The notes under the pieces: generated by a model
The model's input: only the letters and a program-made list of their open reading frames with translations
Database searches by the model: none
What the model was told of the DNA's origin: nothing
Assembly (NCBI GenBank): GCA_003142595.1
Contig: PLMU01000006.1
Span: 282,325 to 346,324 of the forward strand
Length of the DNA: 64,000 nt
From: Phycisphaerales bacterium
GTDB lineage: Bacteria; Planctomycetota; Phycisphaerae; Sedimentisphaerales; UBA12454
Direction of reading: 5' to 3'
Shown here: positions 3,753 to 42,610 of the stretch, piece after piece
How positions within the stretch are numbered: position 1 is the stretch's first letter
Layout of the letters: each line of letters begins with the position of its first letter
Made by a program: the position numbers and the translations under genes

Positions 3753-3808
3753 TTGTTTTTTATGCCAGAACCTGTCCGCCGTAGTCCCTTAGGGACGAAG
3801 GTAGATGG

Positions 3809-4642: not shown

Positions 4643-4666
4643 TATTAAAATTCCTTTAAAAAAATT

Positions 4667-4966
4667 TCAAAGAAGCTTATCGTCTTCGTTTTCGTCCTTT
4701 TCGGGTTCGTCGACTTTCCATTTGTCGCTTTCGTCGATATCGCCCATTTCCCGTTCCATATACTTAAAAATCTTGTCCTGCAGCGGAGCTATCTTTTCCT
4801 GCCATTGCTGCATACTCCGGTAGGTTACAAGGAGCATGTCCAGCCGGATTAGCTGCCATTTTGCGATGCATTCCGGCTCTTTGATATTGATAAACGGGTC
4901 GCATTTGAAGACTCTGCGGTTGTCAACGCCCATTTCGCAGAATTCACAGTCTTTGCATTGTATCAT
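4667..4966 (-). CDS. Hypothetical small protein with an N-terminal Cys cluster and an acidic C-terminal tail
   Basis: 99-aa ORF. It starts MIQCKDCEFCE...KCDP...PEC and ends in an acidic tail DESDKWKVDEPEKDENEDDKLL. I recognise no family. Confidence 0.45.
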   Translation of the reverse strand: MIQCKDCEFCEMGVDNRRVFKCDPFINIKEPECIAKWQLIRLDMLLVTYRSMQQWQEKIAPLQDKIFKYMEREMGDIDESDKWKVDEPEKDENEDDKLL

Positions 4967-5088
4967 TTATGCACCTGAAAAAATTATAATTTAAGCAAGG
5001 CAACTCTTGCAAATTTCTATAATAACATATATCTTATCCTTTTGAAAGTTCTTAGAAAAGCTAAAAAAATATCTTATGGAGTGAAATA

Positions 5089-5166
5089 ATGGCTAAACCA
5101 AGACGCAGGCGAAAGATTGGCAGTAAGAAAAGGCATAACCGCTGGAAAATCAGGCATCGCAAGTAA
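5089..5166 (+). CDS. Candidate 25-aa Arg/Lys-rich micro-protein (MAKPRRRRKIGSKKRHNRWKIRHRK)
   Basis: Below the ORF-track size cutoff. ATG at 5089 is preceded by GGAG (5078-5081) with a 7-nt spacing. 15 of 25 residues are Arg, Lys or His. Composition resembles bS22/Thx-type tiny ribosome-associated peptides, but no alignment was made. Confidence 0.3.
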   Translation: MAKPRRRRKIGSKKRHNRWKIRHRK

Positions 5167-5178
5167 CAGCTGGTGTAG

Positions 5179-5208
5179 TCCTGAGTCCCGGCTTTTCGGG
5201 ATTCAGGA
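5179..5208. other. 12-bp-stem hairpin between the small ORF (+) and fabF (-)
   Basis: tcctgagtcccg-gctttt-cgggattcagga has 11 Watson-Crick pairs plus one G-T pair. It lies 13 nt after the small-ORF stop and about 80 nt after the fabF stop. Neither strand has a U-run, so it is not a canonical intrinsic terminator. Confidence 0.4.
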
Positions 5209-5290
5209 CGATACAGGCCGGCAGGTAGATAGAGGTTCGCCGCAAAGCGAATCGTGATTTGTATTTTGTCTGCTGAATCGAGTTGTTTGT

Positions 5291-6538
5291 TTATACTCTG
5301 CCGACAACGAGGCATGCGTTATGGCCGCCAAAACCGAATGAATTGCTCGCAGCGTAGTTTATTTTTCTCTCTTTGGCTTTATTAGGCACAAAATCCAGTT
5401 TGGGGTCGCATTTGGGGTCAACGTTATCAAGATTTATCGTTGGATGAATTATTGACTTTTCTATCATTTTACAGGTTGCCACAAGTTCGATAGCGCCGCT
5501 TGCGCCCAGCGAATGGCCTATCATGCTTTTCGTCGAGCTGATTGACATTTTATAAGCATGCTCTCCGAAAACTTTCTTTATCGCCAATGACTCCGCGATA
5601 TCGTTAAGCTCTGTGCTTGTGCCATGGGCATTAATATAATCGAATTTTTCCTTCGCGATGCCTGACTGCTTTACTGCAATTTCTATGGCTCTTGCAGCGC
5701 CTTCGCCATCAGGTGGTGGTGCGGTAATATGGTGAGCGTCAGCTGTCGCGCCGTAGCCGAGCATCTCGGCATAGATTTTCGCGCCGCGTTTTTTCGCGTG
5801 CTCATATTCTTCAAGAACAATAGCCGCCGCGCCTTCGGCCATTACAAAGCCGTCACGGTCGATGTCGAAAGGCCTTGAAGCCTTTTGCGGAGCATCGTTT
5901 CGGGTACTGAGAGACCTTAAGGCGCAAAATGAACTCAAGCCTACCGGCGAAACTGCCGCTTCCGAACCGCCGGTAATCATAATATCGCTGCGGTCGTTGA
6001 GGATATTAAAGAACGCTTCTCCAATCGAATTAGAAGCAGAAGCGCAAGCGGTTACAACACAAAAATTCGGGCCTTTAAGACCATACATCATTGAAATCGT
6101 TCCGCAGGCGGCGTTGCCCATAAGTTTGGGAACTGTAAAAGGTGAAACTGCGCGAGGGCCTTTGTTCAGAAGCCGGATGTGCTGCTGTTCGATTTCCTGG
6201 ATACCGCCGATGCCGCTTCCATAAATAGAGCCGCAACGTTCAAGGTTTTCCTTTGGAAAATCTATTCCGCAGTCTTTGACTGCCTGCACCGCAGAAGCCA
6301 CCGCAAGCTGGCAGAAACGGTCCATTCGTTTGCCTTCGCGATGGTCAACAAATTTGTCAATGTCGAAGTTTTTTACTTCTCCGGCAAACCTGACCGGGTA
6401 TTGCGAAACATCGAAACTTGTTATGTTTGCAACTCCGCTCTGTCCCTTGCAGATTGCATCAAAGAAGACATCGACTGAGTCTCCCAGGGGTGTAGCACAG
6501 CCCAGGCCTGTTATGACTACTCGCCGTTTGTTCATCAT
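5291..6538 (-). CDS. fabF: 3-oxoacyl-ACP synthase II
   Basis: 415 aa. KAS II hallmarks: active-site Cys context VVTACASASNSIGEA, HGTSTELND, and GHSLGASGAIE...NSFGFGGHNACLV at the C-terminus. It sits downstream of acpP. Confidence 0.95.
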   Translation of the reverse strand: MMNKRRVVITGLGCATPLGDSVDVFFDAICKGQSGVANITSFDVSQYPVRFAGEVKNFDIDKFVDHREGKRMDRFCQLAVASAVQAVKDCGIDFPKENLERCGSIYGSGIGGIQEIEQQHIRLLNKGPRAVSPFTVPKLMGNAACGTISMMYGLKGPNFCVVTACASASNSIGEAFFNILNDRSDIMITGGSEAAVSPVGLSSFCALRSLSTRNDAPQKASRPFDIDRDGFVMAEGAAAIVLEEYEHAKKRGAKIYAEMLGYGATADAHHITAPPPDGEGAARAIEIAVKQSGIAKEKFDYINAHGTSTELNDIAESLAIKKVFGEHAYKMSISSTKSMIGHSLGASGAIELVATCKMIEKSIIHPTINLDNVDPKCDPKLDFVPNKAKERKINYAASNSFGFGGHNACLVVGRV

Positions 6539-6550
6539 AACAACCTGTTA

Positions 6551-6814
6551 TCAGCCCTGCTCTTTTTGCTTCAGTACAGTTACGATGTAGTCGATAGCCG
6601 CGCCGACGGTCTGAATCTTTTCAGCCTCTTCGTCGGGAATGCTCGTATCGAACTCATCTTCAAATTCCATAACCAGTTCAACGGTGTCCAGCGAATCTGC
6701 GTTGAGGTCGTTAATAAACGATGTTTCACGTTTTATTTCAGACTCTTCTGTACCCATTTGCTCTGCTACAATCTTAATTACCTTCTTTTCAATACTTTGG
6801 ACGTCAATACTCAC
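6551..6814 (-). CDS. acpP: Acyl carrier protein
   Basis: 87 aa. Phosphopantetheine-attachment motif [20 protein letters not shown]. It lies between fabG and fabF. Confidence 0.95.
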
Positions 6815-6925
6815 TTTTCGTCTCCTTGAAAAAAATAAATCCTAAATTACATTTCATCGCTGCCTGTTGGCTATTAGGGCGGTAATATACCTGCCAAAGG
6901 CGATACTTGCAATCATTTTTTTAAA

Positions 6926-7666
6926 TTACATCGCCATTCCGCCGTCAACCTGTAGCACCTGACCGTTAATATAGCCTGCATCATCACTTGCAAGAAACGC
7001 TACCGCTTTTGCCACATCCTGGGGAGTTCCCAGTTTTTTTGCCGGTATTATGGCAAGGGCCGCTTCTTTAACCTGTTCCGGCAGCGTATTTGTCATATCC
7101 GTAACAATAAATCCCGGCGCCACGCAGTTGGCCGTTATGCCTTTTTTTGCGACTTCCCTGACTATCGACTTTGTCATACCGATAAGTCCTGCCTTGCTCG
7201 CTGCGTAATTTGCACTTCCAGCCTGGCCCATAATTCCCGCGATTGAGCTGATACTAATAATCCTGCCGAATTTATTTCGAATCATCGGACGAAGAACCGC
7301 CCTTGTCGCCATAAAAGCCGCCCGCAGATTCACCGACATCAGGATATCGTATTCATCATCGCTCATCTGCATCATCAGTCTGTCGCGCGTAATTCCCGCG
7401 TTATTTACAAGGATGCCGATTCCATCGTATTGCTTCGACAATTCTTCCATTACTTCGTTGAGCTTGTCGGTCTTGGTGATGTCAACGCATTTTGTAATAA
7501 CGCTGTAGCCCGCTTCAGCGACAACTTTTTCAAGCTCTTTAAGCTGTTCAGCGTTCAAATCGAGTCCCGCGACAATCCTGCCCTGCTTGAGCAGTTCCAA
7601 AACTATCGCTCTGCCGATTCCTCTTGCCGCACCCGTTACAACCGCAAGTCTTTTTTCGTCAGCCAT
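6926..7666 (-). CDS. fabG: 3-oxoacyl-ACP reductase (SDR family)
   Basis: 246 aa. TGAARGIGRA cofactor motif and YAASKAG catalytic motif. The position in the fab cluster fits. Confidence 0.9.
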   Translation of the reverse strand: MADEKRLAVVTGAARGIGRAIVLELLKQGRIVAGLDLNAEQLKELEKVVAEAGYSVITKCVDITKTDKLNEVMEELSKQYDGIGILVNNAGITRDRLMMQMSDDEYDILMSVNLRAAFMATRAVLRPMIRNKFGRIISISSIAGIMGQAGSANYAASKAGLIGMTKSIVREVAKKGITANCVAPGFIVTDMTNTLPEQVKEAALAIIPAKKLGTPQDVAKAVAFLASDDAGYINGQVLQVDGGMAM

Positions 7667-9645: not shown

Positions 9646-10657
9646 CGGTGCCCTTAACTCCGGTTGTTGCCAGATATTCTTTTATCTTTTCATTAATTCC
9701 CAGATTGTGAAATTTCCGACTGGCCATAATTGCATTTTTTATTGTTTTACTCTTGCTGGAACCGTGACATATTACACAAGTTCCATTTACGCCTATCAGC
9801 AGTGCCCCGCCGTATTCGTTATAATCGTATTTCTGATACATTCGCATCATTACGGGCTTGAATTTCATTGCAAGAAGAAGTGATTCCTTCATCAGTTCGT
9901 GTTTGATTACCTTAAACAGCCCGTCAACAAGCCCTTCTGTCAGCTTAAGCACGACATTGCCGACAAATCCGTCGCAGATAGCGACGTCGCATTTGCCTTT
10001 AAATATGTCTCGCCCTTCGATATTGCCGATAAAATTTATTTTCGGGTCGCTTTTGATAAGCTCTCTTGCTTTTTTTACTATCTCATTTCCTTTGGCTTCT
10101 TCTTCGCCGATACTCATAAGTCCGACACGCGGATTTTCGATACCCAGAAGATATTTCGAATACATACAGGCCATTACGGTGTATTCATAAAAGTTTATAG
10201 GTTTGCAGGAGATATTAGCGCCGACATCGCACATTGTCACAGGCCCTTCGAAAGTCGGGAACACTACTGCTATCCCCGGCCTGTTCACTCCTTCGATGTT
10301 TCGCATTCTCAACTGGCAGCCCGCCACGCAGGCTCCAGTATTTCCCGCTGAGATAACCGCGTCAGCTTCGCCGTCGGCGGCAAGTTTTGTCATTACTGAT
10401 ATTGAGCTGTTTCGTTTCTTTCTCAGTGCGTCAATTGGCGATTCGTCCATTCCTATAACTTCAGGCGCTTCGACAATCTTCAGCACATTAGCGTATTTAC
10501 TCAGATTTTTTGAGCCGATTTTGGATTGAATGGTCTCGGAAGGTCCGACAAGAAGCAAAGTGTCCCCTTTGTCGAGCTGCGGTATCGACTCTATTGCACC
10601 ATTAAGGATCTCATCAGGTGCGAAATCGCCTCCCATGGCGTCAATGGCTATCCTCAT
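9638..10657 (-). CDS. plsX: Phosphate:acyl-ACP acyltransferase
   Basis: 339 aa. It begins MRIAIDAMGGDFAP, typical of PlsX. It overlaps fabH by 8 nt and follows rpmF, the classical arrangement. Confidence 0.9.
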   Translation of the reverse strand: MRIAIDAMGGDFAPDEILNGAIESIPQLDKGDTLLLVGPSETIQSKIGSKNLSKYANVLKIVEAPEVIGMDESPIDALRKKRNSSISVMTKLAADGEADAVISAGNTGACVAGCQLRMRNIEGVNRPGIAVVFPTFEGPVTMCDVGANISCKPINFYEYTVMACMYSKYLLGIENPRVGLMSIGEEEAKGNEIVKKARELIKSDPKINFIGNIEGRDIFKGKCDVAICDGFVGNVVLKLTEGLVDGLFKVIKHELMKESLLLAMKFKPVMMRMYQKYDYNEYGGALLIGVNGTCVICHGSSKSKTIKNAIMASRKFHNLGINEKIKEYLATTGVKGTDE

Positions 10658-10659
10658 TG

Positions 10660-10851
10660 TTAGCTCGCCTCCTCTGTTTTGGCGAGTTTAAGAGTAATTT
10701 TTGAATTAACATATCCGCAATTATCGCACGCTGCATGAGGCAATTTGGGACTATTGCATTTTTTGCATACAGTATAATGCACGGCCTTTATCGCATGATG
10801 ACTTCTGTGTGTTCTTGTTCTTGTTCTGCTTTTCTTTTTTGCTGGTAACAT
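10660..10851 (-). CDS. rpmF: 50S ribosomal protein L32
   Basis: 63 aa. It is basic, has a CxxC...CxxC zinc-ribbon pattern (CKKC..CDNC), and sits immediately upstream of plsX. Confidence 0.9.
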   Translation of the reverse strand: MLPAKKKSRTRTRTHRSHHAIKAVHYTVCKKCNSPKLPHAACDNCGYVNSKITLKLAKTEEAS

Positions 10852-11288
10852 CTGATTTCTCCGGTTTAGGATAAAAAAACAACAAAGCCCAATCCCCTCA
10901 TTCTCAGTTTTTTAGGCTGAAAATCGCGGCTAAATTGTTCTTTGTATCTGTTATTCAGGCGAGTAAAATCGCCTTTTGCGGCTAAAAATCGCCAATTAAG
11001 TCCGAATTCTGAGTCGTTTTAATAGTTTAGATTGCACCTATTGTCAAGAAAATTTAAAAAAAACCTAACATACCAAAATTATCAGAATTAAACCTATTAT
11101 TTGTCCAGTAAATCTAAATTATTGAAAAATCACTAAAAATGGTTAAATTGGCAACAAAACAGTAACATTTGCGTTATTTAGGAAGGAAATTTGCAATTAA
11201 AACAGACATAACTATATATTTAGCAAAGAGTTAAGTGTCATAAACATTTCTATATTTCTTTTTCTGAACTGATATACCAAAAAATCTC

Positions 11289-11317
11289 TTGCTAATTTTA
11301 AAAATAGTATTTAGTAT
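11289..11317 (+). promoter_or_regulatory. Candidate sigma70-type promoter for the Cys-repeat cassette
   Basis: TTGCTA (11289-11294), a 17-nt spacer, then TAGTAT (11312-11317). It lies about 60 nt upstream of ATG 11379, which has a strong SD AGGAG (11367-11371) at 7-nt spacing. The promoter consensus for this lineage is unknown. Confidence 0.3.
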
Positions 11318-11378
11318 TATGATGTTATGGTAAATCCATAATATCTTAAAAGTTCATCATATTTGTAGGAGATGATTT

Positions 11379-11723
11379 ATGAGAAAAATTGCAGTTTTAA
11401 TTATTATTGTACTTGTGGGAATAGCTTTTTGCGCATTTGCGGATCACAACAACTCTGTTGTTTTAAAAGATGCATCTTTTAGTTCGCCCGCTGCAGCTAT
11501 ATCCTACAACATGAGTGGCTGCCTCAACAAGCAAACTTCTAATTCCTCATTGGCTCAGTCTATTTACGAACAAGGAATAGCTACTCCATTGGCACGTAGT
11601 GAAGCTTGTTCTACAGGCTGTTCCACTGGTTGCTCTAATGGCTGTTCCAATGGCTGCTCTAATGGCTGTTCAGATGGATGTTCTTCGGGCTGTTCTACAG
11701 GCTGTTCAGTAGGTTGTAAGTAA
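11379..11723 (+). CDS. Secreted protein with a C-terminal (Cys-Ser-x-Gly)x9-Cys-Lys repeat
   Basis: 114 aa. Signal peptide MRKIAVLIIIVLVGIAFCAFA, then a Ser/Asn/Ala-rich linker. It ends CSTGCSTGCSNGCSNGCSNGCSDGCSSGCSTGCSVGCK. It has a strong SD. Confidence 0.7.
   Translation: MRKIAVLIIIVLVGIAFCAFADHNNSVVLKDASFSSPAAAISYNMSGCLNKQTSNSSLAQSIYEQGIATPLARSEACSTGCSTGCSNGCSNGCSNGCSDGCSSGCSTGCSVGCK
11607..11717 (+). repeat. 12-nt (4-codon) tandem coding repeat TGY-TCN-NNN-GGN, nine units plus a final Cys codon
   Basis: Read directly: tgttctacaggc tgttccactggt tgctctaatggc tgttccaatggc tgctctaatggc tgttcagatgga tgttcttcgggc tgttctacaggc tgttcagtaggt tgt. Confidence 0.9.
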
Positions 11724-11759
11724 GTTGTAAGAGGGCCTTAAACACCTGTTCTAATTGAG

Positions 11760-13292
11760 GTGTATTCATTGTTTGCAAAATTTCCTGATATTAAAAAGGA
11801 AGTTCGCAGATTTAATTGCGGACTTCCTTTTTTATTAATTTGTTTTCTATTGTCGCTGATGTTCTCTCGTGGCTTTGGGATTCAGTTTATTTTCAAAGTC
11901 GTTGTATTATTACTCTTTGGATTTTTACTCTGGCATCGCTGGACTATAGGGAATATTAGTTCTCTAATCAAAGTTGCATTTTGTTTTGTTGCTGCGTGCC
12001 TATTCTGGCCAATTGTATTTCTTTATGGATTTTGGTCTTTCGTTATTGGAGAATCCTCTGATGACCATAAGTTACACTGGCAGGCAGGAACCAGTGCAAT
12101 TTTGTTTTTCTGGCTACTTCAGAACACAACTATCGGGTCATGGACATATTTCCCATTTATTGGTATGCCTATTTTTCTGATTACCTGTTTCATTCTTTTC
12201 TTTTTGCCGCGACAAGTCCAGACCGGACTAATAATTGCTTGTATGATTTTCAGTATTTTCCAATTATACAATATCCGTTCCGATGCCCAAATAGGATACA
12301 ATCAACTATATGCTCCCGGGTATAGACAAGGAGCCGTCTTATCAAAAATTCTCAATGGCACTTTGGTTGACATAAATAATGTAGGGGGTAAGGTAGGAAT
12401 TACAAGTTTGATTCAGAAATCAAAAGTAAATAACTCACAGTATCCGATTATACTGGTTGAACACGATCAAAAGCCTAGCAAGGATTATCCCATTATTATC
12501 GAAAGTAGTGTAACTATGCCATATCCTTGGTATGCTAATCAGCTTTTTGGAGATCAATATTTACTTGCTGCGATAGCAGAAGACGGACAATGGATTTCAA
12601 ACATTGGTGGAAAATTATCGCCAAAAGGTCATTTTGTGCTCATAACTAAAACTAGACAAGGCTATCAGCCATTAATAATTAAGTATGGCAAAAAGGTATA
12701 TATTAACGATTCTGATCCATTCGTGGACAGGCTTGCAAATTATCAGCAATCGGCTATCCGGGAAATAGCCTATGGGTTACCGTTTTATAGATCTCTTAAT
12801 ATCCTATCTCTAGTTGGTTTACTTTTGTCACGATGGAAAAAAACGAATATAATCATATCTTGCATTATTTTGGTCATTATTCTTGTGTATGTCAATCGTC
12901 CGATACAGGGAAACGTCAGAATGGTAGGTGATGTTAGTTTTCCGCATGAACCATCGAAAATATCTGGCCTGATGCGCAGCATAGTTGATGCCGGGTTTGC
13001 TTACACAACAGGAACGGAGAATTGCACATTGTTAGTTGTAGGCGAAAGTAAAAAAGCTGCGATTAAATCAACTGAACTTATGGTGGTAGGGAGTGCCGGA
13101 GCTACAATAACTTTGGGAGAAAATGTAATCAAGATTGATGAACTTCCTCTTGGTGATGAGGATGGAGTAATAGATGCTCGAAATGTAATAATAAATGGCG
13201 TCCTAAATAAACCTAGTGTGAAATTTCAAAATATAACAATTTTAGGTACAGGTAGTCCTGCAAAACAAAACTGGTCTATATGGCTTCGTTAA
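11760..13292 (+). CDS. Polytopic membrane protein of unknown function (about 6 N-terminal TM segments, soluble domain, TM pair, C-terminal soluble domain)
   Basis: 510-aa ORF, Phe/Ile/Leu-rich hydrophobic segments, low-GC codon usage. The start is uncertain. The track uses GTG 11760. TTG 11769 has GAGG 8 nt upstream. The gene overlaps the next one by 13 nt. Confidence 0.6.
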   Translation: MYSLFAKFPDIKKEVRRFNCGLPFLLICFLLSLMFSRGFGIQFIFKVVVLLLFGFLLWHRWTIGNISSLIKVAFCFVAACLFWPIVFLYGFWSFVIGESSDDHKLHWQAGTSAILFFWLLQNTTIGSWTYFPFIGMPIFLITCFILFFLPRQVQTGLIIACMIFSIFQLYNIRSDAQIGYNQLYAPGYRQGAVLSKILNGTLVDINNVGGKVGITSLIQKSKVNNSQYPIILVEHDQKPSKDYPIIIESSVTMPYPWYANQLFGDQYLLAAIAEDGQWISNIGGKLSPKGHFVLITKTRQGYQPLIIKYGKKVYINDSDPFVDRLANYQQSAIREIAYGLPFYRSLNILSLVGLLLSRWKKTNIIISCIILVIILVYVNRPIQGNVRMVGDVSFPHEPSKISGLMRSIVDAGFAYTTGTENCTLLVVGESKKAAIKSTELMVVGSAGATITLGENVIKIDELPLGDEDGVIDARNVIINGVLNKPSVKFQNITILGTGSPAKQNWSIWLR

Positions 13293-15286
13293 CTGGAACT
13301 GCAATAGCTCTGATATTTTGTTTAATATTCGGTCAGTTTTCAATGGCATTGCTGATCGCGGGTTTTTTGAGCCTATTAGGAATTATTTTTAACTCCCTCC
13401 AGAAAACTGCCTGCTTTATTTTCATAACAACTGTTACTTGTGCTTTTGTTATTTCTAGTAAATCAGAGTTGGCTTTTTTTATACCAGCCATAACTCTTTG
13501 GTTAACGAAAGAAGTTTTAGATAAAAGTTTATTCCCCAAAAATATTTGGATTATCTTTGCGCCTTTGGCAATTTATTGTATAACTTTTCAGGACCGCGAT
13601 ATTAAAATTTTGATTTTTGTGATTTTCGTTTTAGCCTTACCAAATTTTATTTTCTCATCTATACCCAAATACATAAATAGTCGGAAATGGAATATTATTA
13701 TGGTAGTAGCCATAATTGGTGTTGCCATAGTTAACCTTCTACTGTCAATGCCCATATATGACGGAAAGACGGCCATAATTGAATCAGGTGTCTGGGCTAA
13801 AACTGAAGTAAAAATGAATGATGTACGAAATTTGAACATTGAGTCCATTTATTCATACTCCGAATTTAAAGACCTTTTGGAAGCGCACGTTATTAAACCT
13901 TCAGATATTAATGATACCTATGCTGAAGCTTGGCTTATAACCCCTACTCAACCTTTGGATAATGATACAAAACGTAAATTATGTGATTGGATAAAACACG
14001 GTGGTCGGCTAATTATTGTGTCGGATCACACAGATCTTTTTGGTCATGGGAGGGTTATCAACTCATTTATCTCTGATCTTGGGCTTGAAACATCGTATAC
14101 GGCATTTTTCCCTATAACACCTAATTTGAAAGCTATGACTAACTGGGGCGAAAATGCCTGGTTGAAAACAACAAATGTCCAAAGCGGTTTATTCTTGTGG
14201 CCAGAGGTAACAGCAAGATGGGTGAACGAGAGCGCAGACTATTCCAGTAGAAATTTTTTTGGCCCGCTTTTGTTAAGTGCCGATGATACATTAGGACGTC
14301 GTGTAATAGCAGGCACAAAAAGTTGGGGAAAAGGACGTCTTGTGATTTTTGGGGATAGCACAAGTCTATCTAACTTTGCCCTTTATCAACCCCACAACAT
14401 CAATCTAATAGAAAAAATTCGAACTGGAAGTCGTTTCGCGTGTCTCTTGCCTTTTATTTCAGGTATACTCGTTGTGTCACTTTTAATTTCATTATTTTTT
14501 AAGAAATTAGATATTTTGCTAGTGATACCTGTGATAGGACTTTTTGCAATTTTAGATTGTCAAACCATACCTGTTAACTGGAAGCCTTTTGCATATTGGT
14601 CAGGTAACGAGAAAGCAGTAATGGAATTTGGACATATTCAAGAGCGTTTGTCAACAGCATATGCGGTTTCTTTTCTTTCTGGGCTTAAGCCTCGATGGGT
14701 TTCAAACATAAATCATAATATGACTGGTTTTTGGGTAGGATCAATGCCTCCACCCAACAGCAGATGGAGATGGATCGATACTAGCGATGCAAATGGATGT
14801 TTAGAAAACTATGATAAACGATTGGACACACTGTTATATAAAATTTCAGCAGGATCCCCTTATTTATGGAATGGAAAATTAGACCCTAATCATGCTAAGA
14901 TAGGTGGCATATGGACAGACAATGCTATGGGGGATTGGTGGTTTGATCGAGGTATTAGTAAATCTAAGCAACAAAGAATACAAGCATGGCTTGCTTGGTT
15001 ATCTAGTCAACCTTTACCAGAACCAATACACCCTATTGTTTTACATGATGCTTTCTTAAAGGATTACAAATTAAGAATTGATACGCAAGACTGGCAAACT
15101 GTTACCATCCCAGAATTACCTTTTAAGAACGATGAAATATATATAGGCCGTGGAATTTCTGCTACTATTGTCAATGCACAAGGTAAAACGATGTTCCTTG
15201 GAACAAAATCGTTTACTGAATCTTGGAACAGCGCAAACGCATGGGTGTTAATACCATTTATACCGGATAGTAATGTCAATGAATAA
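13280..15286 (+). CDS. Polytopic membrane protein with a central GldG/DUF4350-like soluble domain (tentative)
   Basis: 668 aa with about 5 N-terminal TM segments. The soluble part contains KHGGRLIIVSDHTDLFGHG and GKGRLVIFGDSTSLSNF. These resemble the 'GG-x-L-hhh-D' and 'hhhhGD..hh.N' strand motifs of GldG / ABC-transport-auxiliary / DUF4350 folds. Two more TM segments follow, then a Trp-rich C-terminal domain. Confidence 0.6.
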   Translation: MASLTGTAIALIFCLIFGQFSMALLIAGFLSLLGIIFNSLQKTACFIFITTVTCAFVISSKSELAFFIPAITLWLTKEVLDKSLFPKNIWIIFAPLAIYCITFQDRDIKILIFVIFVLALPNFIFSSIPKYINSRKWNIIMVVAIIGVAIVNLLLSMPIYDGKTAIIESGVWAKTEVKMNDVRNLNIESIYSYSEFKDLLEAHVIKPSDINDTYAEAWLITPTQPLDNDTKRKLCDWIKHGGRLIIVSDHTDLFGHGRVINSFISDLGLETSYTAFFPITPNLKAMTNWGENAWLKTTNVQSGLFLWPEVTARWVNESADYSSRNFFGPLLLSADDTLGRRVIAGTKSWGKGRLVIFGDSTSLSNFALYQPHNINLIEKIRTGSRFACLLPFISGILVVSLLISLFFKKLDILLVIPVIGLFAILDCQTIPVNWKPFAYWSGNEKAVMEFGHIQERLSTAYAVSFLSGLKPRWVSNINHNMTGFWVGSMPPPNSRWRWIDTSDANGCLENYDKRLDTLLYKISAGSPYLWNGKLDPNHAKIGGIWTDNAMGDWWFDRGISKSKQQRIQAWLAWLSSQPLPEPIHPIVLHDAFLKDYKLRIDTQDWQTVTIPELPFKNDEIYIGRGISATIVNAQGKTMFLGTKSFTESWNSANAWVLIPFIPDSNVNE

Positions 15287-15555
15287 TTAAGGCCGCCCGT
15301 CTCGACCCTATAGAGGCACTCAGACACGAATAACTGATTTTGCATATCTATTTATATATCAAACAGTTATGTTCATATTTTGCAAGTTAAACTCTCTCTA
15401 AACAAAATATTTGCCATAAGTCCTTATTTTTCATGCTCAATTTTTTATTCTTCTGTGGATGGAGTTTTCATTCTTTATATTTTTTCTTATTGAAAGATGC
15501 CTATAAATCGGTTATTCTCCTAATCTCTATGATTTTAACAGGAAAGTTGCGAAAT

Positions 15556-16329
15556 ATGGCAAGAAATCCCAGACATGCAGCGCTTTATGAGCTTATTAAT
15601 AAGGCGCGGTTCAAAAACGCTCAACAAAAGGCATTGGCCAGAATTGGCGTCAAAACCGATTCGGTCAAGCCGTTGGAAGAACGGCCGGTTGTTGTTTCTC
15701 AGGAAGAGCCAGCCGCCCCTGTGCAGGTAGAAACTGCCAGGCCGGAGCCGGTTAAAACAATTGCTGCATGGTCTGCCAAGCCAAAGCCGTTCAGGGTTTA
15801 TCCTGACCGGATTGAATTGTGTATTTCGTGGCAGGCAGCGGTAATTACAACGCTTGCTTTCGTAGCGGTATTGCTGGTCTGTTTCAGATTAGGCCAGGCA
15901 TATTCGATTAAAAAGGCTCAGGAGCCAAAGGTTGCAAAAGCTGTTGTTCCCGTACAGGCTGTTATACCTGAACCTGTAAAACCGGCTGCCGAGAAAAAAC
16001 CAGCGGCGCAAAATCCGCCCAAAATGGTCGAGCCGATGGGCGATAATATTATTGTTATTACAAGTTACGATGTAAGCTCGCATCTGGAACCGGTAAAGCA
16101 ATACTTTGCCACATACGGAATAGCGACTGAGATAATAAAAAGAGGTTCCCGTTACCTGCTGGTAACGCAGAACCGTTTTAATACTATCGATAAGCCCGGC
16201 ACTGATGGCTATGAAATGAAAAAGAAAATAATATCCGTCGGGGCGAATTATAAACCGCCGGCCGGCTCAGGTTTTGAATCCTTCGGAACAAAGCCGTTCC
16301 AGGATGTCTATGCAATGAAGGCTAATTAG
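15556..16329 (+). CDS. Membrane-anchored Pro/Ala-rich protein with a possible SPOR-like C-terminal domain
   Basis: The track ORF starts at 15433. I prefer ATG 15556 (MARNPRHAALYEL...), which has a purine-rich stretch upstream. There is one TM segment (AAVITTLAFVAVLLVCF) and a PEPVKPAAEKKPAA linker. The C-terminal ~80 aa (IIVITSYDVSSHLEPVKQYFATYGIATEII..) is loosely SPOR-like. Confidence 0.5.
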   Translation: MARNPRHAALYELINKARFKNAQQKALARIGVKTDSVKPLEERPVVVSQEEPAAPVQVETARPEPVKTIAAWSAKPKPFRVYPDRIELCISWQAAVITTLAFVAVLLVCFRLGQAYSIKKAQEPKVAKAVVPVQAVIPEPVKPAAEKKPAAQNPPKMVEPMGDNIIVITSYDVSSHLEPVKQYFATYGIATEIIKRGSRYLLVTQNRFNTIDKPGTDGYEMKKKIISVGANYKPPAGSGFESFGTKPFQDVYAMKAN

Positions 16330-16348
16330 TTTTTTTGGAGTTTTGAAA

Positions 16349-16756
16349 ATGTCAATTGATCGTTCACTGAAGCTTAAAGGTGCCCTTGTAAGACACCGTA
16401 ACGTACTTACACGTTCAGAGAGACTTGCCCGACTCAAAGAAGAAGAAAAATGGGAAGATGGCAATAGCGTTTTCGGTCTTGCCAAAGTAGCCAATAGAAA
16501 GGTTACTGTATCCAAGAAGAAAGAAGCCAAGGCCGCAGTAGAAGGCGAAGTTGCAGGCGTCCCAGGCGCAGCTCCCGGAGCAGCAGCACCAGCAGGAAAA
16601 GCTGGAGCACCGGCTGGCAAACCCGGTGCAGGCGCAAAGGCCGCAGCACCAGCCAAGGCCCCTGCCGGCGTCAAAGCCGCCCCAGTAAAAGCAGCTCCCG
16701 CAGCCAAATCTTCCGGTCAGGGCAAACCCGGTGGCGGCGGCGGTGGAAGAAGATAA
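16349..16756 (+). CDS. Small basic protein (TIGR04137-like N-terminus) with a long Ala/Pro/Gly/Lys-rich tail
   Basis: MSIDRSLKLKGALVRHRNVLTRSERLARLKEEEKWEDGNSVFGLAKV matches my memory of the 'small basic protein' family. The tail is AAPGAAAPAGKAGAPAGKPGAGAKAAAPAKAPAGVKAAPVKAAPAAK..GGGGGGRR. ATG 16349 is preferred over the track's TTG 16343. Confidence 0.6.
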   Translation: MSIDRSLKLKGALVRHRNVLTRSERLARLKEEEKWEDGNSVFGLAKVANRKVTVSKKKEAKAAVEGEVAGVPGAAPGAAAPAGKAGAPAGKPGAGAKAAAPAKAPAGVKAAPVKAAPAAKSSGQGKPGGGGGGRR

Positions 16757-17910: not shown

Positions 17911-19989
17911 TTATTCCTTCGCTCCGGCTTTTTCAAGAAGCTGCACGATATCTGTTAGGCCATTTTCTTTTGCAATGCTCAAGGGTGTATAATCTTTCCC
18001 CCCACTACTTACCTTGACATTGACATCGGCTCCTTTTTCCAGCAAGAGTTTGACGACCTCGGTGCGAGCGTTCGCTGTGGCTATAAACAGCGGAGTAACG
18101 CCGTTTGTTTTATCGGCGGCGTTCACATCGGCCTTCGCCGCCAGCAGGCACTTGACAACCTCTGTATGGCCGTTCTGCGACGCTATCCACAGGGCGGTTG
18201 TGCCGCTATCGGTTTTCTTTACATTTACATCATCGCCCTTTTCCAAAAGGAGCTTAACAATTTCCGTATGGCCTTGCTGCGACGCCATCCACAAGGCCGT
18301 TACGCCGTCGGCGGTTCTTTTCACATTTACATCAGCGCCCTTTTCCAAAAGGAGTTTGACGACCTCTGTATGGCCATTCTGTGACGCTTGCCACAGGGCC
18401 GTTACGCCGTCGGTTGTTTTTGCATTGACATCAGCACCCTTTTCCAAAAGGAGTTTGACGACCTCTGTATGGCCATTCTCCGCTACTACAAACAGTGGAG
18501 TGACACCGTTTGTTTTAGCGGCGTTCACGTCGGCCTTCGCCGCCAGCAGGCATTTGACGACCTCCGTATGACCCTCCTGCGATGCCGTCCACAGGGCAGT
18601 TACGCCGTCGGTTGTTTTTGCATTAACATCAGCACCCTTTCCCAGTAGGAGCTTGACGACCTCCGTATGGCCGTTCACCGCCGCCATCATCAGGGCAGTA
18701 CAGCCGTCGGTGTTTCTCTTCAAATTTACATCCGCCCCCTTCTCCAGCAGGAGCTTGACAACATCAACACAGCCTTCCTGCGCCGCCTTCCACAGGGCAG
18801 TTACGCCGTCGGTTGTATCCTTTACATTTACATCAGCGCCTTTTTCCAGTAAGAGTTTGACGACATCCGTATGACCGTTCTGCGAGGCCACCATCAAGGC
18901 GGTTACGCCTTCGTCGGTTTTCTTCACATTGACCTCGGCCTCCTTCTCCAGCAGGAGCTTGACGACCTCCGTATGGCCGTTTTCCGCGGCTGTCCACAGT
19001 GCCGTTTCGCCGTTTTTGGTTTTTGCATTAACATCGCCACCCTTTTCCAAAAGAAGCTTGACGACCTCTGTATGGCCCTCCACCGACGCAATCCACAAGG
19101 CGGCTATACCATCGTTGTTCTTTGCATTTATATCAGCGCCCTTTTCCAAAAGGAGTTTGACGACTTCCGTATAACCTTTCTGCGATGCTATAATCAGGGC
19201 GGTTGCGCCGGTTTCGGTTTGCTTTACATTTACATCGGCCCCCTTTTCCAAAAGCAGCTTGACGACCTCTGTATGGCCATTCTGCGCCGCCATCCACAGA
19301 GGCGTTATATCGTTGTTGTCCTTGGTATTAACATTAGCGCCTTTTTCAAGGAGGAGCTTGGTGGTTTCCGTATGACCATTCTGCGCTGCAATCCAAAGGG
19401 TCGTTCTGCTGTCGTTATTCTTGGCATTTACATCGGCGCCCTTTTCCAAAAGAAGCTTAACGACCTCCGTATGGCCCCCCTGCGCCGCCTGCCACAAGGC
19501 CGTACAGCCAGTTCCGGTTTGCTTCACATTAACATCGGCGCCCTTTTCCAAAAGAAGCTTGACGACCTCCGCATGGCCTTCCTGCGACGCTATCAACAGG
19601 GCCGTTGTGCCGTCGGTGGTCCTCTTTGCATTGACATCAGCACCCTTTTCAAAAAGAAACTTGACGATTTCCGTATGGCCGTTCTGCGATGCTTGCCATA
19701 AGGCGGTGCAGCCGGTTCCGGTTTGTTTCACATTTATATCGGCCCCCTTTTTCAAAAGCAGTTTGACAATTTCTGTATGGCCGTTGTTCGCTGCCCACAT
19801 CAATACAGGCACTCCACCATCATCTTTGGCATTCGGGGCGGCGCCTTGGGACAAAGCAGTTTTTACGGCAGGCAGGTTGCCATCTTTTGCGGCCTGAATC
19901 AATTGGGCATTCTTGTCTGATACATCCGCTTTGGCAAAAGCCGCAGATATCAGAGAAAGGCACACTATCGTAAACAGGATTCGTTTCAT
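17911..19989 (-). CDS. Secreted ankyrin-repeat protein (about 19-20 tandem ANK repeats)
   Basis: 692 aa. Signal peptide MKRILFTIVCLSLISAAFAKA. The rest is 33-34-aa repeats of the form TALW.A.QNGHTEVVKLLLEKGADVN.K. Confidence 0.9.
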   Translation of the reverse strand: MKRILFTIVCLSLISAAFAKADVSDKNAQLIQAAKDGNLPAVKTALSQGAAPNAKDDGGVPVLMWAANNGHTEIVKLLLKKGADINVKQTGTGCTALWQASQNGHTEIVKFLFEKGADVNAKRTTDGTTALLIASQEGHAEVVKLLLEKGADVNVKQTGTGCTALWQAAQGGHTEVVKLLLEKGADVNAKNNDSRTTLWIAAQNGHTETTKLLLEKGANVNTKDNNDITPLWMAAQNGHTEVVKLLLEKGADVNVKQTETGATALIIASQKGYTEVVKLLLEKGADINAKNNDGIAALWIASVEGHTEVVKLLLEKGGDVNAKTKNGETALWTAAENGHTEVVKLLLEKEAEVNVKKTDEGVTALMVASQNGHTDVVKLLLEKGADVNVKDTTDGVTALWKAAQEGCVDVVKLLLEKGADVNLKRNTDGCTALMMAAVNGHTEVVKLLLGKGADVNAKTTDGVTALWTASQEGHTEVVKCLLAAKADVNAAKTNGVTPLFVVAENGHTEVVKLLLEKGADVNAKTTDGVTALWQASQNGHTEVVKLLLEKGADVNVKRTADGVTALWMASQQGHTEIVKLLLEKGDDVNVKKTDSGTTALWIASQNGHTEVVKCLLAAKADVNAADKTNGVTPLFIATANARTEVVKLLLEKGADVNVKVSSGGKDYTPLSIAKENGLTDIVQLLEKAGAKE

Positions 19990-20248: not shown

Positions 20249-21721
20249 CTACTGCCCAAGATTGAGAACGATATATCTTGCAAATTCACCCTGCCGGACA
20301 TAAAGCAGGATAGAATTTCCCGATTTTTTAATCAGTTCCCAGAAATCGGCAGCATCCTTGACTTTTTGTTTATTGACTTCCATAATTAAGGTTCCGGCAA
20401 CAATCTCCGCCTCTTCAGCAGGCGAGCCGGGTTCCACAGCGGTAACTATAACGCCTGTTTTTTCATCCTTATAGCCAAACTGCTGCGCAAGCTCCGGGGT
20501 TAAATTCTGAACGGTTATGCCGAGTTTTTCGACTGTTTGTTCCTGCTGCTGGGCGGCAGCGGTCCCGGCTTTTCTGGCGGCAAGTTCGACAGTAATATCT
20601 TTTTCGTTACTGTCCCTGATAACGGTCAGCGTTACTTTTGTGCCGGGCGCAAATTCAGCGATTTCATTTCTGAAACTGTCCCAGTTGCTGATTTCTTTGC
20701 CGTTCTTTTTTACAATAATATCGCCTTTATGCATTTCGGCTTTTTCGGCCGGGCTGCCCTTGGCGATATCATTAACAACTATGCCTTTATATCCTTTTGC
20801 GCCGAGCAGCTCCGCCATTTGCGGGGTTACATTATCACAATAAATGCCGATGTAGCCTCGCGTAACTTTACCGCCGGCGATAATCTGTTTATAGACATTT
20901 TTTGCTATATTGATTGGAATAGCAAAACCAATACCTGAATATTCGCCGCTCTGGCTGACTATCGCGGTATTCATACCAATAACTTTTCCATCGATATTAA
21001 TCAGCGGTCCGCCTGAGTTGCCGAAATTAATTGCCGCATCTGTTTGTATGAAGTCCTCATACTCCGCAAGGCCGATTCTGCTCCTGCCTTTGGCCGAAAC
21101 AATACCTGCCGTTACGGTATGGCTCAGGCCGAACGGGTTTCCTATTGCCAGAACCCACTGGCCGACTTTGAGTTTATCAGAGTCGCCCAGTTCGACCACA
21201 GGCAGATTCTTTGCATTAATTTTTATTACCGCAACGTCGGTTTCAGGGTCTGTGCCGATTACCTTTGCCGTTAATTCTCTATCGTCAGAAAGTTTAACGG
21301 TTATTTTGTTGGCATCTTTAACAACGTGATTATTAGTCAAAATGTAACCGTCCGATGTAATAATAAAACCTGACCCCTGGCCGCGGCGGATTTCTTTTCT
21401 TTCCTTGGGCTGCTGCTGTTGCTGCTGTTGCTGATGCTGGCGAAACTGAGGACCGAAAAATCTTTTGAAAAATTCATCATTTTGAAACTGTTCAAACGGG
21501 TCTCCAAAATAATAATCGGATATTCTCTGTGTGTATTCCTGTTCGATGCTTACGAAGACCACGGCAGGACTTACCTTTGCCGCAATGTCCGCAAAGACTT
21601 CGCCGGTGTTGCGAAGGGTTTCAACATCGGATTTTTTATCAGGCTCGGCTAAACAAAGGGGTGACATAAAGGAAATGACAAAAATTGCAAGAACTACCAA
21701 AAGCTTTTTTTCGCGATTCAT
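20249..21721 (-). CDS. htrA: Periplasmic HtrA/DegP-family serine protease with two PDZ domains
   Basis: 490 aa with a signal peptide. Catalytic-triad contexts are TNNHVV (His), DVAVIKI (Asp) and GNSGGPLI (Ser). The C-terminal half has two PDZ-like segments. An unusual QHQQQQQQQQ insertion lies near residue 95. Confidence 0.9.
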   Translation of the reverse strand: MNREKKLLVVLAIFVISFMSPLCLAEPDKKSDVETLRNTGEVFADIAAKVSPAVVFVSIEQEYTQRISDYYFGDPFEQFQNDEFFKRFFGPQFRQHQQQQQQQQPKERKEIRRGQGSGFIITSDGYILTNNHVVKDANKITVKLSDDRELTAKVIGTDPETDVAVIKINAKNLPVVELGDSDKLKVGQWVLAIGNPFGLSHTVTAGIVSAKGRSRIGLAEYEDFIQTDAAINFGNSGGPLINIDGKVIGMNTAIVSQSGEYSGIGFAIPINIAKNVYKQIIAGGKVTRGYIGIYCDNVTPQMAELLGAKGYKGIVVNDIAKGSPAEKAEMHKGDIIVKKNGKEISNWDSFRNEIAEFAPGTKVTLTVIRDSNEKDITVELAARKAGTAAAQQQEQTVEKLGITVQNLTPELAQQFGYKDEKTGVIVTAVEPGSPAEEAEIVAGTLIMEVNKQKVKDAADFWELIKKSGNSILLYVRQGEFARYIVLNLGQ

Positions 21722-29590: not shown

Positions 29591-29593
29591 TTG

Positions 29594-42392: not shown

Positions 42393-42610
42393 TTTTAGCT
42401 TCTTTCAAAAATCCTTTTTAAATTCTTTGCCGGATTATATCCGGCATTTCACATATGGTCATATAGAATATCAATCCTATCTAAAATATCAAATGAATAA
42501 ATCGGGGACGTTTGCTCTCGCACAAGCGAGGGATCGAAGTTTTTGATTACTCGTTGTGATTTGTACTTTGGGTATTGGTAATTCCCCGATTTGGCTTAAA
42601 AAGCCAAAAA

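Follow-up and report, generated by a model that had tools for sequence, protein, structure and literature searches.

The window analyzed here, a stretch of 64,000 nucleotides (nt) from a Phycisphaerales bacterium (assembly GCA_003142595.1, contig PLMU01000006.1, positions 282,325 to 346,324 of the forward strand), carries a compact cassette of three co-directional genes, which encode a small secreted peptide ending in a tandem array of Cys-Ser-x-Gly units and two large polytopic membrane proteins of 510 and 668 amino acids (aa), termed B and C (Table 1). An earlier note, made from the sequence alone, had delineated three open reading frames (ORFs) with a 36-nt gap and a 13-nt overlap between them, and this layout is confirmed exactly. 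Peptide, B, and C form a genuine operon-like three-gene cassette. They are moreover a conserved unit whose genes always travel together, in hosts as distant as Bacteroidales, Akkermansia, and a contig binned to an archaeon. The system is without a described counterpart in the literature searched, and one of its components has a known fold of unknown function.

The cassette is horizontally acquired and compositionally foreign, as the earlier note had proposed from its low GC. Its GC content is 0.36-0.37 against a mean of 0.44 across the window, and its GC at third codon positions (GC3) is 0.30, compared to 0.45-0.55 in the flanking fabH, plsX, rpmF, and aminotransferase genes. It is bordered by fabH-plsX-rpmF and a hypothetical gene. 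Because the ORF that begins at 15433 resembles the host in GC and is not present in related loci, the cassette is taken to end at 15286. Directly after the C stop codon, a GC-rich hairpin at 15288-15310 scores as a minus-strand terminator, with its T-run on that side; it may be bidirectional and form the island's 3′ boundary. No integrase or transposase was found beside the window cassette, in keeping with the earlier observation.

The strong Shine-Dalgarno (SD) sequence that had been noticed ahead of the peptide gene was located as AGGAG, 7 nt before the ATG. A plausible promoter had also been claimed for the leader, which is not supportable: sigma-70-like matches occur there at chance level, with 15 found and 17.1 expected from shuffled sequence, and the promoter was not located. 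For B, three start codons are candidates, namely, GTG at 11760, TTG at 11769 (after GAGGTG), and ATG at 11859; the last is where the best-scoring homolog (P0054) starts, but it is without an SD.

Table 1. Features of the cassette, with nucleotide positions in the window or residue numbers in the encoded proteins
Feature	Position	Strand	Remarks
Upstream leader, noncoding, AT-rich	10852..11378	+	GC about 0.28-0.32; AGGAG 7 nt before peptide ATG
Cys-repeat peptide gene, 114 aa	11379..11723	+	at least 181 homologous clusters
510-aa membrane protein gene (B)	11760..13292	+	36 nt after peptide gene; start GTG 11760
Terminator-like hairpin	11793..11832	+	17-bp stem then TTTTTTATTAATTTG; just downstream of peptide gene
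668-aa membrane protein gene (C)	13280..15286	+	13-nt overlap with 510-aa gene
B, transmembrane bundle	about residues 9-170		conserved W83-P..H..G-F-W92 and W118..Q121
B, GATase1-like soluble domain	about residues 176-337		motifs E-H235-D and D317-S-D..D-R..Y-Q329
B, transmembrane hairpin	residues 341-378
B, beta-rich C-terminal domain	residues 386-510		motifs H396-E-P and G-T-G-S-P500
C, transmembrane bundle	about residues 2-155
C, GIFT/DUF4350/GldG-like flavodoxin-fold domain	about residues 163-382		motifs D249-H-T-D-L-F-G-H256, D359-S-T..N..Y-Q370
C, transmembrane hairpin	residues 385-427
C, Trp-rich beta/alpha C-terminal domain	residues 437-668

Conservation of the three-gene unit

The linkage of the three genes was examined from both ends. 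Four C-homolog neighborhoods each contain, directly upstream of B, an ORF of 105-116 aa designed like the window peptide, and a scan of one genome per species recovered 15 loci, all of which (15/15) have the order peptide, B, C. Their hosts include metagenome-assembled genomes (MAGs) of Phycisphaerae, Verrucomicrobia (two), Chlamydiae, and Verrucomicrobiales, together with Brocadiaceae, Kiritimatiellia, Bacteriovoracaceae, Bacteroidales, Bacteroides, Bacteroidaceae, Prevotella, Akkermansia (including A. muciniphila), and a Pacearchaeota archaeon. A further 69 loci came from a scan of metagenomes and one from viral contigs. When the C proteins were collapsed at 90% identity, 58 non-redundant groups resulted, 40 of which were testable, with B intact and 450 nt or more of upstream sequence; a Cys-repeat ORF lies beside B and C in every one of these (40/40), and the loci seemingly without a peptide are truncated contigs. 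Look-ups started from peptides found DUF4350/GldG-type membrane partners adjacent in 7/7 cases. The earlier note had named beforehand the outcomes that would count against a functional unit, among them genes that do not co-occur outside this genome and a peptide ORF that is not conserved. Neither is what the related loci hold: (CSxG)n peptides accompany both membrane proteins in every testable locus, and the peptide has homologs in at least 181 clusters.

Linkage survives rearrangement. The order B, C, peptide is seen in five groups, and on a set of JGI metagenome contigs (L038-L042, L045-L049) the peptide gene follows the 668-aa gene by approximately 45-60 nt. All-against-all clustering of the neighboring ORFs disclosed no other linked gene family, except an integrase-like protein in 6/58 loci. 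The system is very common in Akkermansia of the human gut: the cluster of C-like proteins exemplified by MRN12415.1 occurs on at least 1000 contigs, where its members are annotated as hypothetical, DUF4350, or GldG family alone. A complete triad also stands on a 5.4-kb contig (L021) binned to a DPANN archaeon, Candidatus Pacearchaeota archaeon UBA284, which could reflect inter-domain transfer or a binning error on a short contig.

The Cys-repeat peptide and its two membrane partners

The window peptide opens with a Sec-type signal at residues 1-21, with predicted cleavage between AFA and D. Signals of this type, called by a hydropathy heuristic and comprising a basic n-region, a hydrophobic h-region, and an AxA-like site, are found in the window peptide and its homologs alike. 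A lipoprotein was rejected since there is no lipobox at the end of the signal peptide (…IAFCAFA, then D), and a C-terminal sorting signal was rejected as well, the array being too polar in the window peptide and many homologs. Past the signal come a leader-like motif, F34-S-S-P-A-A-A..S-Y..S-G (nt 11478-11525), an R73-S74 junction (nt 11595-11600), and an array of nine CSxG units followed by CK (nt 11607-11720), exactly as previously counted. The family consensus reads [FW]-S-S-P-A-A-x-x-S-[YF]-x-x-S-G-[DN], then about 25 variable residues, then R-S-x-G-(C-S-x-G)n-C-[R/K], with W or Y often next.

A profile built from 15 peptides recovered at least 181 clusters at 90% identity, none of them informatively named, and residue statistics were compiled over 178-180 distinct sequences. 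Cys occupies the first position of the repeat in 100%, and the second is Ser in 97% and Thr in 3%; the third is variable (T, V, S, Y, N, M), and the fourth is Gly in 85%. Ahead of the first Cys, Arg is present at -4 in 87% and Ser at -3 in 94%. A strict C[ST]xx count gives 3-10 units per peptide with a median of 6, and up to 12 are discernible by eye. In 92% of the peptides, no more than 5 residues separate the array from the C-terminus; at the variable position, the opening unit usually has a polar residue and the closing one a hydrophobic residue. The nine window units use mixed synonymous codons (TGT/TGC, TCT/TCC/TCA, GGC/GGT/GGA), and an equivalent protein repeat is encoded by 60%-GC DNA in a Verrucomicrobia MAG (L004). 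The repeat is thus maintained at the protein level, and a recent DNA-slippage artifact is ruled out. The near-invariant Ser and Gly residues argue for enzyme recognition of each unit or for a defined turn, beyond loose metal binding. The leader-like motif and core-like array would together fit the precursor layout of a peptide synthesized ribosomally and then modified post-translationally (RiPP), with putative modification or cleavage.

Two departures from this design deserve mention. In an Akkermansia subgroup from the human gut (L076, 4376-5212, and L032), the peptide has a 278-aa long form that continues past its (CSTx)9 array with a linker rich in Pro, Ser, and Thr and two copies of a small Cys/His module, Y-W..H-N..C..C-x-x-C-G-G, for which no Pfam match was found; the same extension is present in P0134 and P0139. 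In a Prevotella MAG (BNJT01000327, about 3800-7470; L015 / L063), the peptide repeat is degenerate (CTNSCTNSCSNSC...) and the B and C homologs match the family profiles as several fragments in different frames; the copy may be decaying or misassembled.

The terminator-like hairpin at 11793-11832, overlooked in the earlier note, has a dG of -22.3 and a z-score of -4.8, with a z-score of -3.7 for the whole spacer. Equivalent hairpins lie 3′ of the peptide gene in 13/17 related loci (z < -2), frequently with T-runs. We infer that the hairpin serves as an attenuator and, since it is read as such, that the peptide transcript is in large excess over the B and C transcripts. An excess of this kind is familiar in operons where a small structural or precursor gene stands ahead of the genes for processing. 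A scan of 10600-15800 against Rfam returned sub-threshold matches alone, caused by the hairpin, and a riboswitch was rejected because no Rfam family exceeded its threshold.

AlphaFold2 models of the two membrane proteins, computed with family alignments as input, are of high confidence (pLDDT 91.3 and pTM 0.90 for C; pLDDT 89.6 and pTM 0.89 for B). They share one plan, an N-terminal transmembrane (TM) bundle of 5-6 helices, an alpha/beta domain, a TM hairpin, and a beta-rich C-terminal domain, which agrees with the common layout that the earlier note had drawn for both. Foldseek searches against the PDB matched the alpha/beta domain of each model, with no match to a whole protein or TM domain. 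For C, the matches, at E about 1e-4, were to the N-terminal GIFT domain of IFT52 (target TM-score 0.53-0.59), to site-1 protease (S1P), and to glycosidases of families GH42 and GH164 in their middle domains; for B, there was a weak match to HisH, a class I glutamine amidotransferase (probability about 0.95, E about 0.06).

At the sequence level, C approaches PF14258 (DUF4350) with an E-value of 1.4e-6 and 29.2 bits against a gathering cut-off of 30.4, and reaches PF09822 (GldG ABC_transp_aux) with 17.6 bits against a cut-off of 34.7. Many C homologs carry a precomputed PF14258 match, and those of Akkermansia are named "GldG family protein" or "DUF4350 domain-containing protein" at NCBI. This weak similarity of C is the sole match of the three proteins in Pfam, NCBIfam, and PADLOC scans: B has none in any of the three, PADLOC gave none at E up to 1 for peptide, B, or C, and B and C family profiles against PDB sequences gave nothing at E up to 1. 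C is thus probably a weak DUF4350/GldG-type protein, a member or near-member of the GIFT fold family as judged from its profile matches and model. DUF4350 has been linked to GldG and to the flavodoxin-fold middle domain of beta-galactosidases by Makarova et al. (PMC5898192). In our literature search no description of the cassette was found, and mentions of DUF4350 in papers on Geobacter cobalt and B. fragilis antimicrobial resistance were incidental. The earlier statement that neither membrane protein could be assigned therefore holds for B and gives way for C, whose first soluble domain has the DUF4350/GldG/GIFT fold.

An exhaustive profile search of 1.84 billion representatives shows the B family to be limited in size and homogeneous, its 148 clusters at 50% identity all measuring about 470-575 aa without a fusion among them, and a 5.8-billion-protein search found 39 homologs of C and 21 of B, all from metagenomes or MAGs and none informatively named.

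The conserved motifs of the two alpha/beta domains occupy matching places. After one beta-strand, C has D249-H-T-D-L-F-G-H256 and B has E234-H235-D; after a later strand, C has D359-S-T-x3-N-x4-Y-Q370 and B has D317-S-D-x3-D-R-x3-Y-Q329. Distant C-like proteins retain DHTDL[FY]GH and DST..NFAL. Conserved Cys residues are found in neither family, and the B TM bundle holds conserved Trp, His, and Gln residues where that of C is poorly conserved. BLASTP and hhalign report no significant similarity between B and C; on the strength of the shared architecture and the matched motifs, B looks like a very divergent paralog of C. By the order of secondary-structure elements, the motifs would sit at the nucleophile-elbow and His/Glu-loop positions of amidotransferase-fold hydrolases.

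Family-wide counts of Lys and Arg in short loops favor, for B and C alike, a topology that puts the two soluble domains on the outer side of the cytoplasmic membrane, and the loops of their TM hairpins are basic. The soluble domains are thus probably extracytoplasmic. GldG-type domains have been described as periplasmic or extracellular (PMC5898192), and the outward topology agrees with that location as well as with the Sec signal on the peptide. A dedicated export apparatus for the peptide, one of the functions earlier suggested for B and C, is unnecessary, as the peptide has a Sec signal of its own.

A module for transport or sensing, in which B and C would be GldG-like accessory or permease-like proteins and the peptide a periplasmic binding partner or chaperone, could account for the ABC_transp_aux/GldG and DUF4350 matches of C and for the 5-6-helix bundle in each protein. 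We consider this improbable: no ATPase or other energizing component is linked in the 58 non-redundant loci, the TM bundle of C is poorly conserved, and a low-complexity Cys repeat would be an odd binding protein.

Variant loci and candidate functions

A variant class of loci informs the chemistry of the array. In its peptides the FSSPAA motif is swapped for G-[LM]-x-x-[PA]-D-[AS], with [E/Y]-R-S-x-x-C-S and the array kept, and the peptide gene is followed by genes for a C-like protein of 850-900 aa and a protein of about 640 aa. The 638-aa representative of the latter has the motifs GEHTDADG and GDSTPALNEF and aligns in hhalign weakly, in a motif-consistent manner, to C (E 0.033), with no match to the 510-aa B family. 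The leader motif of the peptide hence co-varies with the subtype of its partners, as expected of leader-enzyme recognition. In a third arrangement, genes for two GIFT/DUF4350 proteins and a 218-aa protein precede the peptide gene, with a resolvase gene adjoining and chrB further along the contig.

A gene for a thioredoxin-fold protein of the Redoxin/AhpC-TSA type is adjacent in 5/5 independent variant-class loci, just upstream on the same strand in three and convergent, just downstream, in two. Its product in one of them (L022; Redoxin E 3.5e-13, Thioredoxin_8 E 1.2e-12) carries a signal peptide, MKSLILIFCVALSTYASA, and a WATWCAPC site as in TlpA, ResA, and CcmG; it thereby combines the features of that type, namely, a thioredoxin fold, a signal peptide, and W-x-x-W-C-x-x-C. 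Proteins of the TlpA/ResA/CcmG type reduce specific Cys substrates in the oxidizing periplasm, for cytochrome c maturation and copper-site assembly. By analogy, the variant thioredoxin is probably reducing rather than oxidizing, and its consistent linkage points to reduced thiols as the working form of the array. The earlier reading of a metal- or thiol-handling system gains support from these TlpA/ResA-like WCAPC thioredoxins.

These redox considerations bear on the proposal that the peptide is a disulfide cross-linked structural envelope protein akin to OmcA, with B and C anchoring or assembling it. Secretion and a high Cys content suit this proposal, the peptide is probably overproduced as a structural component would be, and the window host is a member of the Planctomycetes-Verrucomicrobia-Chlamydiae (PVC) group by its TIGR04137 marker. 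The linked thioredoxin is of the reducing TlpA/ResA type (WCAPC, Redoxin), as far as its redox direction can be told by analogy; B and C have no conserved Cys; the peptide has neither a lipobox nor similarity to OmcA, and Pfam and NCBIfam give it no OmcA or OmcB match. The hosts, in which the genes occupy mobile or variable islands, extend beyond the PVC group and have very different envelopes (Bacteroidales, Akkermansia, Bacteriovoracaceae, and a DPANN archaeon), a distribution that would be untypical of a core wall component. The proposal, which originated with the earlier note, is disfavored and in our estimation very improbable.

The reading that we favor, tentatively and at somewhat less than even chances, is that of an extracytoplasmic system in which B and C recognize and process or otherwise handle an abundant peptide that is kept reduced and acts as a polythiol chelator or thiol buffer. 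The peptide would be produced in excess of B and C, with the hairpin acting as an attenuator. After Sec export, its leader-like motif would dock it on a complex of B and C, assumed for now to be a heterodimer, whose soluble domains face the periplasm. The His/Asp/Ser pockets of B and C would then process the array, by cutting it at the conserved R-S junction and/or by acting repeatedly, on every C-S-x-G unit; as a minimal alternative, they would hold it. In oxic hosts a dedicated TlpA-like reductase would keep the thiols reduced, for which the largely anaerobic hosts of loci like that of the window would have no need. What results would be a polythiol in the periplasm or outside the cell, serving as a soft metal or metalloid chelator or as a thiol redox buffer and comparable in function to bufferins, oxazolins, phytochelatins, and metallothioneins. 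The extracytoplasmic site is proposed because of the Lys and Arg pattern of the loops, the basic hairpin loops, the Sec signals on both peptide and thioredoxin, and the GldG-type precedent; complex formation between B and C, catalysis, and the end-function of the system are proposals that go beyond the observed gene linkage, peptide design, folds, motifs, hairpin, and thioredoxin association. Precedent exists in Cys peptides with Sec signals that act as periplasmic metal chelators, one class of which has repeated Cys motifs (PMC11626156, PMC12452194).

Several points weigh against this proposal of a reduced polythiol handled by B and C. Genes for metal-responsive regulators, efflux pumps, or metal resistance do not recur consistently beside the cassette, and ChrB occurs once. 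Near-invariant Ser and Gly would be superfluous for simple thiolate metal binding and argue instead for enzyme recognition or a defined structure. The window's type of locus is without a thioredoxin gene, and extending the reduced-thiol state to it assumes anaerobic hosts, as their taxonomy suggests; the lineages concerned are understood to be largely anaerobic or microaerophilic. On the protein side, homology between B and C is not statistically established (hhalign probability 24%), one B loop is discordant in the positive-inside analysis, and the placement of the motifs at active-site positions rests on the order of secondary-structure elements alone. Finally, GIFT, GldG, and GH42-middle domains are not known enzymes, and the motifs could be a binding or oligomerization surface.

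A more ambitious version envisions the first case of ribosomal-peptide maturation carried out by dedicated machinery wholly outside the cytoplasm, in which two paralogous, membrane-anchored amidotransferase-fold proteins recognize the leader motif after Sec export and act processively on C-S-x-G units, either cutting them into small thiol peptides or decorating each one. The yield would be a periplasmic polythiol or a glutathione-like low-molecular-weight thiol, passed horizontally between largely anaerobic microbes of the gut and the environment, A. muciniphila among them; we think this version rather unlikely. A rival reading makes the array a polyprotein, with B and C as amidotransferase-fold peptidases that cut every Gly-Cys bond and free a Cys-Ser-X-Gly tetrapeptide as a ribosomally made low-molecular-weight thiol for the periplasm of hosts believed to lack glutathione. 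The array has a strict period of 4 without spacers, and its unit number differs even between close relatives, as if copy number set the yield. Basic residues lie on both sides of it, the attenuator hairpin suits a substrate made in bulk, and a TlpA-like reductase would hold the product reduced. Steric hindrance to cleavage, or to an N-to-S acyl shift, is lowest where Gly precedes Cys, and the His/Asp/Ser motifs occur in a fold class with several peptidase families (S51, C26, C56, and S66 have an amidotransferase-type fold). Neither B nor C, however, matches a peptidase family by sequence. The variability of the third unit position (T, V, S, Y, N, M) would give a mixed product, and the Akkermansia array is internal, with a linker and two modules after it, which better fits a tethered functional segment. 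We hold a polyprotein to be of low probability.

Covalent decoration is a further rival, in which every Cys or Ser would receive from B and C a membrane-derived group, such as a lipid, another cofactor, or a polyprenyl-linked sugar, by a logic like that of System II cytochrome c maturation. The near-invariant Cys-Ser-x-Gly resembles a modification sequon, conserved Trp, His, and Gln residues lie inside the TM bundle of B, and D-S-D and D-H-T-D may be likened to motifs that bind metals or sugar phosphates. The TlpA-like reductase is obligatory in the variant class, and every component for ATP-free work outside the membrane is present. Genes for donor synthesis are nonetheless missing from the linked families, the TM bundle of C is poorly conserved, and neither GT-C glycosyltransferases, Lgt/Lnt, CcsBA, nor other known transferases show similarity, so that decoration appears quite unlikely.

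Among known systems, the nearest in concept are the bufferins and oxazolins. Bufferins are MNIO-modified, Sec-exported RiPP metallophores that chelate copper and whose operons are induced by transition-metal stress, and in the oxazolins (Buf_EGKCG) the Cys residues lie in short tandem EGKCG motifs (PMC11626156, PMC12452194). Like the peptides described here, bufferins and oxazolins are small ribosomal Cys peptides with Sec signals, encoded beside dedicated partner genes and periplasmic (PMC11626156, PMC12452194). Neither the leader motif nor the C-S-x-G unit, with its period of 4, is related to those of bufferins, and bufferin enzymes act before export, whereas the polytopic, outward-facing partners of the cassette would imply processing after it. 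Neither MNIO (DUF692) nor DUF2063 or DoxX appears in the Pfam-annotated neighborhoods or among the recurrent neighbors of cassette loci, and membership was rejected for want of the defining MNIO and DUF2063 genes, the Sec signal on the Cys precursor notwithstanding.

GldG (PF09822), DUF4350 (PF14258), and the GIFT domain of IFT52 have a flavodoxin-like fold in common with the first soluble domain of C. That domain is anchored in the membrane with a predicted outward orientation, which is also the arrangement reported for GldG and arCOG01314 (PMC5898192). B and C elaborate this theme with an N-terminal bundle of several TM helices, a TM hairpin, and a further domain, come paired with a peptide gene, and in the case of C bear the family-specific motifs DHTDL[FY]GH and DST..NF..YQ. 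GldG works with the GldA/GldF ABC transporter, whereas cassette loci are without a linked ATPase or permease, no such family being recurrent in the 58 non-redundant neighborhoods.

An analogy may be drawn with System II cytochrome c maturation (ResA/CcsX, ResB/CcsB, and ResC/CcsA), in which a TlpA-type reductase readies Cys thiols for thioether formation. The likeness would lie in a secreted TlpA-type reductase joined to two polytopic proteins with large periplasmic parts and conserved His and Trp; there is no similarity in sequence or fold, the peptide is without CxxCH, and neither heme nor another cofactor is indicated. Phytochelatins, (gamma-Glu-Cys)n-Gly with n of 2-11, and the (Cys-Ser-x-Gly)n peptides, with about 3-12 units, are both polythiol chains in which a short Cys-containing unit is repeated a variable number of times. 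Phytochelatins and metallothioneins are cytoplasmic, without membrane partners, signal peptide, or leader, and phytochelatins are made by an enzyme rather than the ribosome; Pfam and NCBIfam scans showed no similarity to either.

The array also recalls classic modified peptides. The microcin B17 core has a G-C-S-x-G-C-S pattern too, in which Gly-Cys-Ser becomes a thiazole-oxazole, and S-x-G-C resembles the T-P-G-C of nisin ring B. The enzymes that modify thiazole/oxazole-modified microcins (TOMMs) and lanthipeptides are cytoplasmic and dependent on ATP or tRNA, whereas the cassette peptide is Sec-exported and its partners face outward. A YcaO (TOMM) or Lan substrate was rejected because the defining enzymes are absent, with no Pfam or NCBIfam match to YcaO/McbBCD or LanB/C/M/KC/L in the cassette or its neighbors.

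If the polythiol proposal is true, the cassette represents a thiol system of a new, extracytoplasmic class that is transferred horizontally and spans at least eight bacterial lineages and one archaeal, and it would assign a function to part of the "dark matter" of DUF4350, GldG, and GIFT domains. It would also introduce a post-export, ATP-free logic of maturation, absent from known ribosomal-peptide systems, and could explain periplasmic metal or redox buffering in Akkermansia and Bacteroidales; to our knowledge, these and similar hosts lack glutathione. The periodic C-S-x-G array is in effect a compact, genetically encoded polythiol, and as such might serve in metal capture. Since A. muciniphila is cultivable, experimental access is at hand, provided that sequenced isolates are confirmed as carriers. 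Should the end-function differ, the three-gene linkage, the peptide design, and access through Akkermansia still make the question directly testable.

Mobility and other features of the window

Judging from its neighbors, the cassette is probably accessory and mobile, residing among genes of mobile elements or variable islands. One related locus has DnaB, AlpA, and HTH_17 nearby, and another has an integrase, AlpA, and DUF3631; elsewhere there are transposases, a primase-helicase, a resolvase with ChrB, or an island with an OLD-like ATPase and a kinase. The Akkermansia L076 locus lies between a KAP-family NTPase and a 1807-aa RHS-repeat toxin with a Sel1-repeat gene. An island of the same Akkermansia type, flanked by the KAP NTPase and the RHS toxin, is the one match among viral contigs, and phage cargo was rejected as a general explanation because this single match is without flanking phage genes. 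A tblastn search of 72,556 plasmid records with both 668-aa-type proteins gave no match. Around the window island, no convincing att-like direct repeats were found, and the sole tRNA in the window is at 42610.

An antimicrobial interpretation would make the peptide a Sec-dependent bacteriocin with GxxxG "glycine-zipper" repeats, for which B and C provide immunity or processing. The gene for a small secreted peptide, an attenuator hairpin downstream of it, mobile or variable islands, the RHS toxin neighbor in Akkermansia, and an array that also reads as a GxxxG repeat with a basic C-terminus all accord with it. Bacteriocin cores, however, diversify fast, whereas the core here is conserved from an archaeon to Bacteroidales; typical immunity proteins do not resemble the two partners, which are large, conserved, and enzyme-like, and a dedicated reductase would be out of place. 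A bacteriocin is accordingly far-fetched, with a probability that we judge to be slight.

Islands of foreign composition number at least two in these 64 kb, the cassette among them. The second, on the minus strand at 27341-33336 with an even lower GC3 of 0.25-0.27, is a complete Shango anti-phage system comprising SngA (TerB_N/TerB_C, 809 aa; E 1.4e-51), SngB (BrxC/D-like ATPase, 437 aa; E 1.7e-154), and SngC (DEAD/Lhr-type helicase, 749 aa; E 1.2e-228). Closer to the cassette, a small basic protein encoded at 16343-16756 (+) has a long tail rich in Ala, Pro, Gly, and Lys and matches TIGR04137 (Chlam_Ver_rRNA) above its cut-off (E 2.4e-18), a family that we take to be PVC-restricted and hence to place the host in the PVC group. 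On the minus strand at 17911-19989 lies the gene for a 692-aa protein that consists almost entirely of ankyrin repeats (18 Ank matches), unusual in a free-living bacterium, and adjoining it at 20249-21721 is the gene for a DegP/HtrA-type protease with two PDZ domains.

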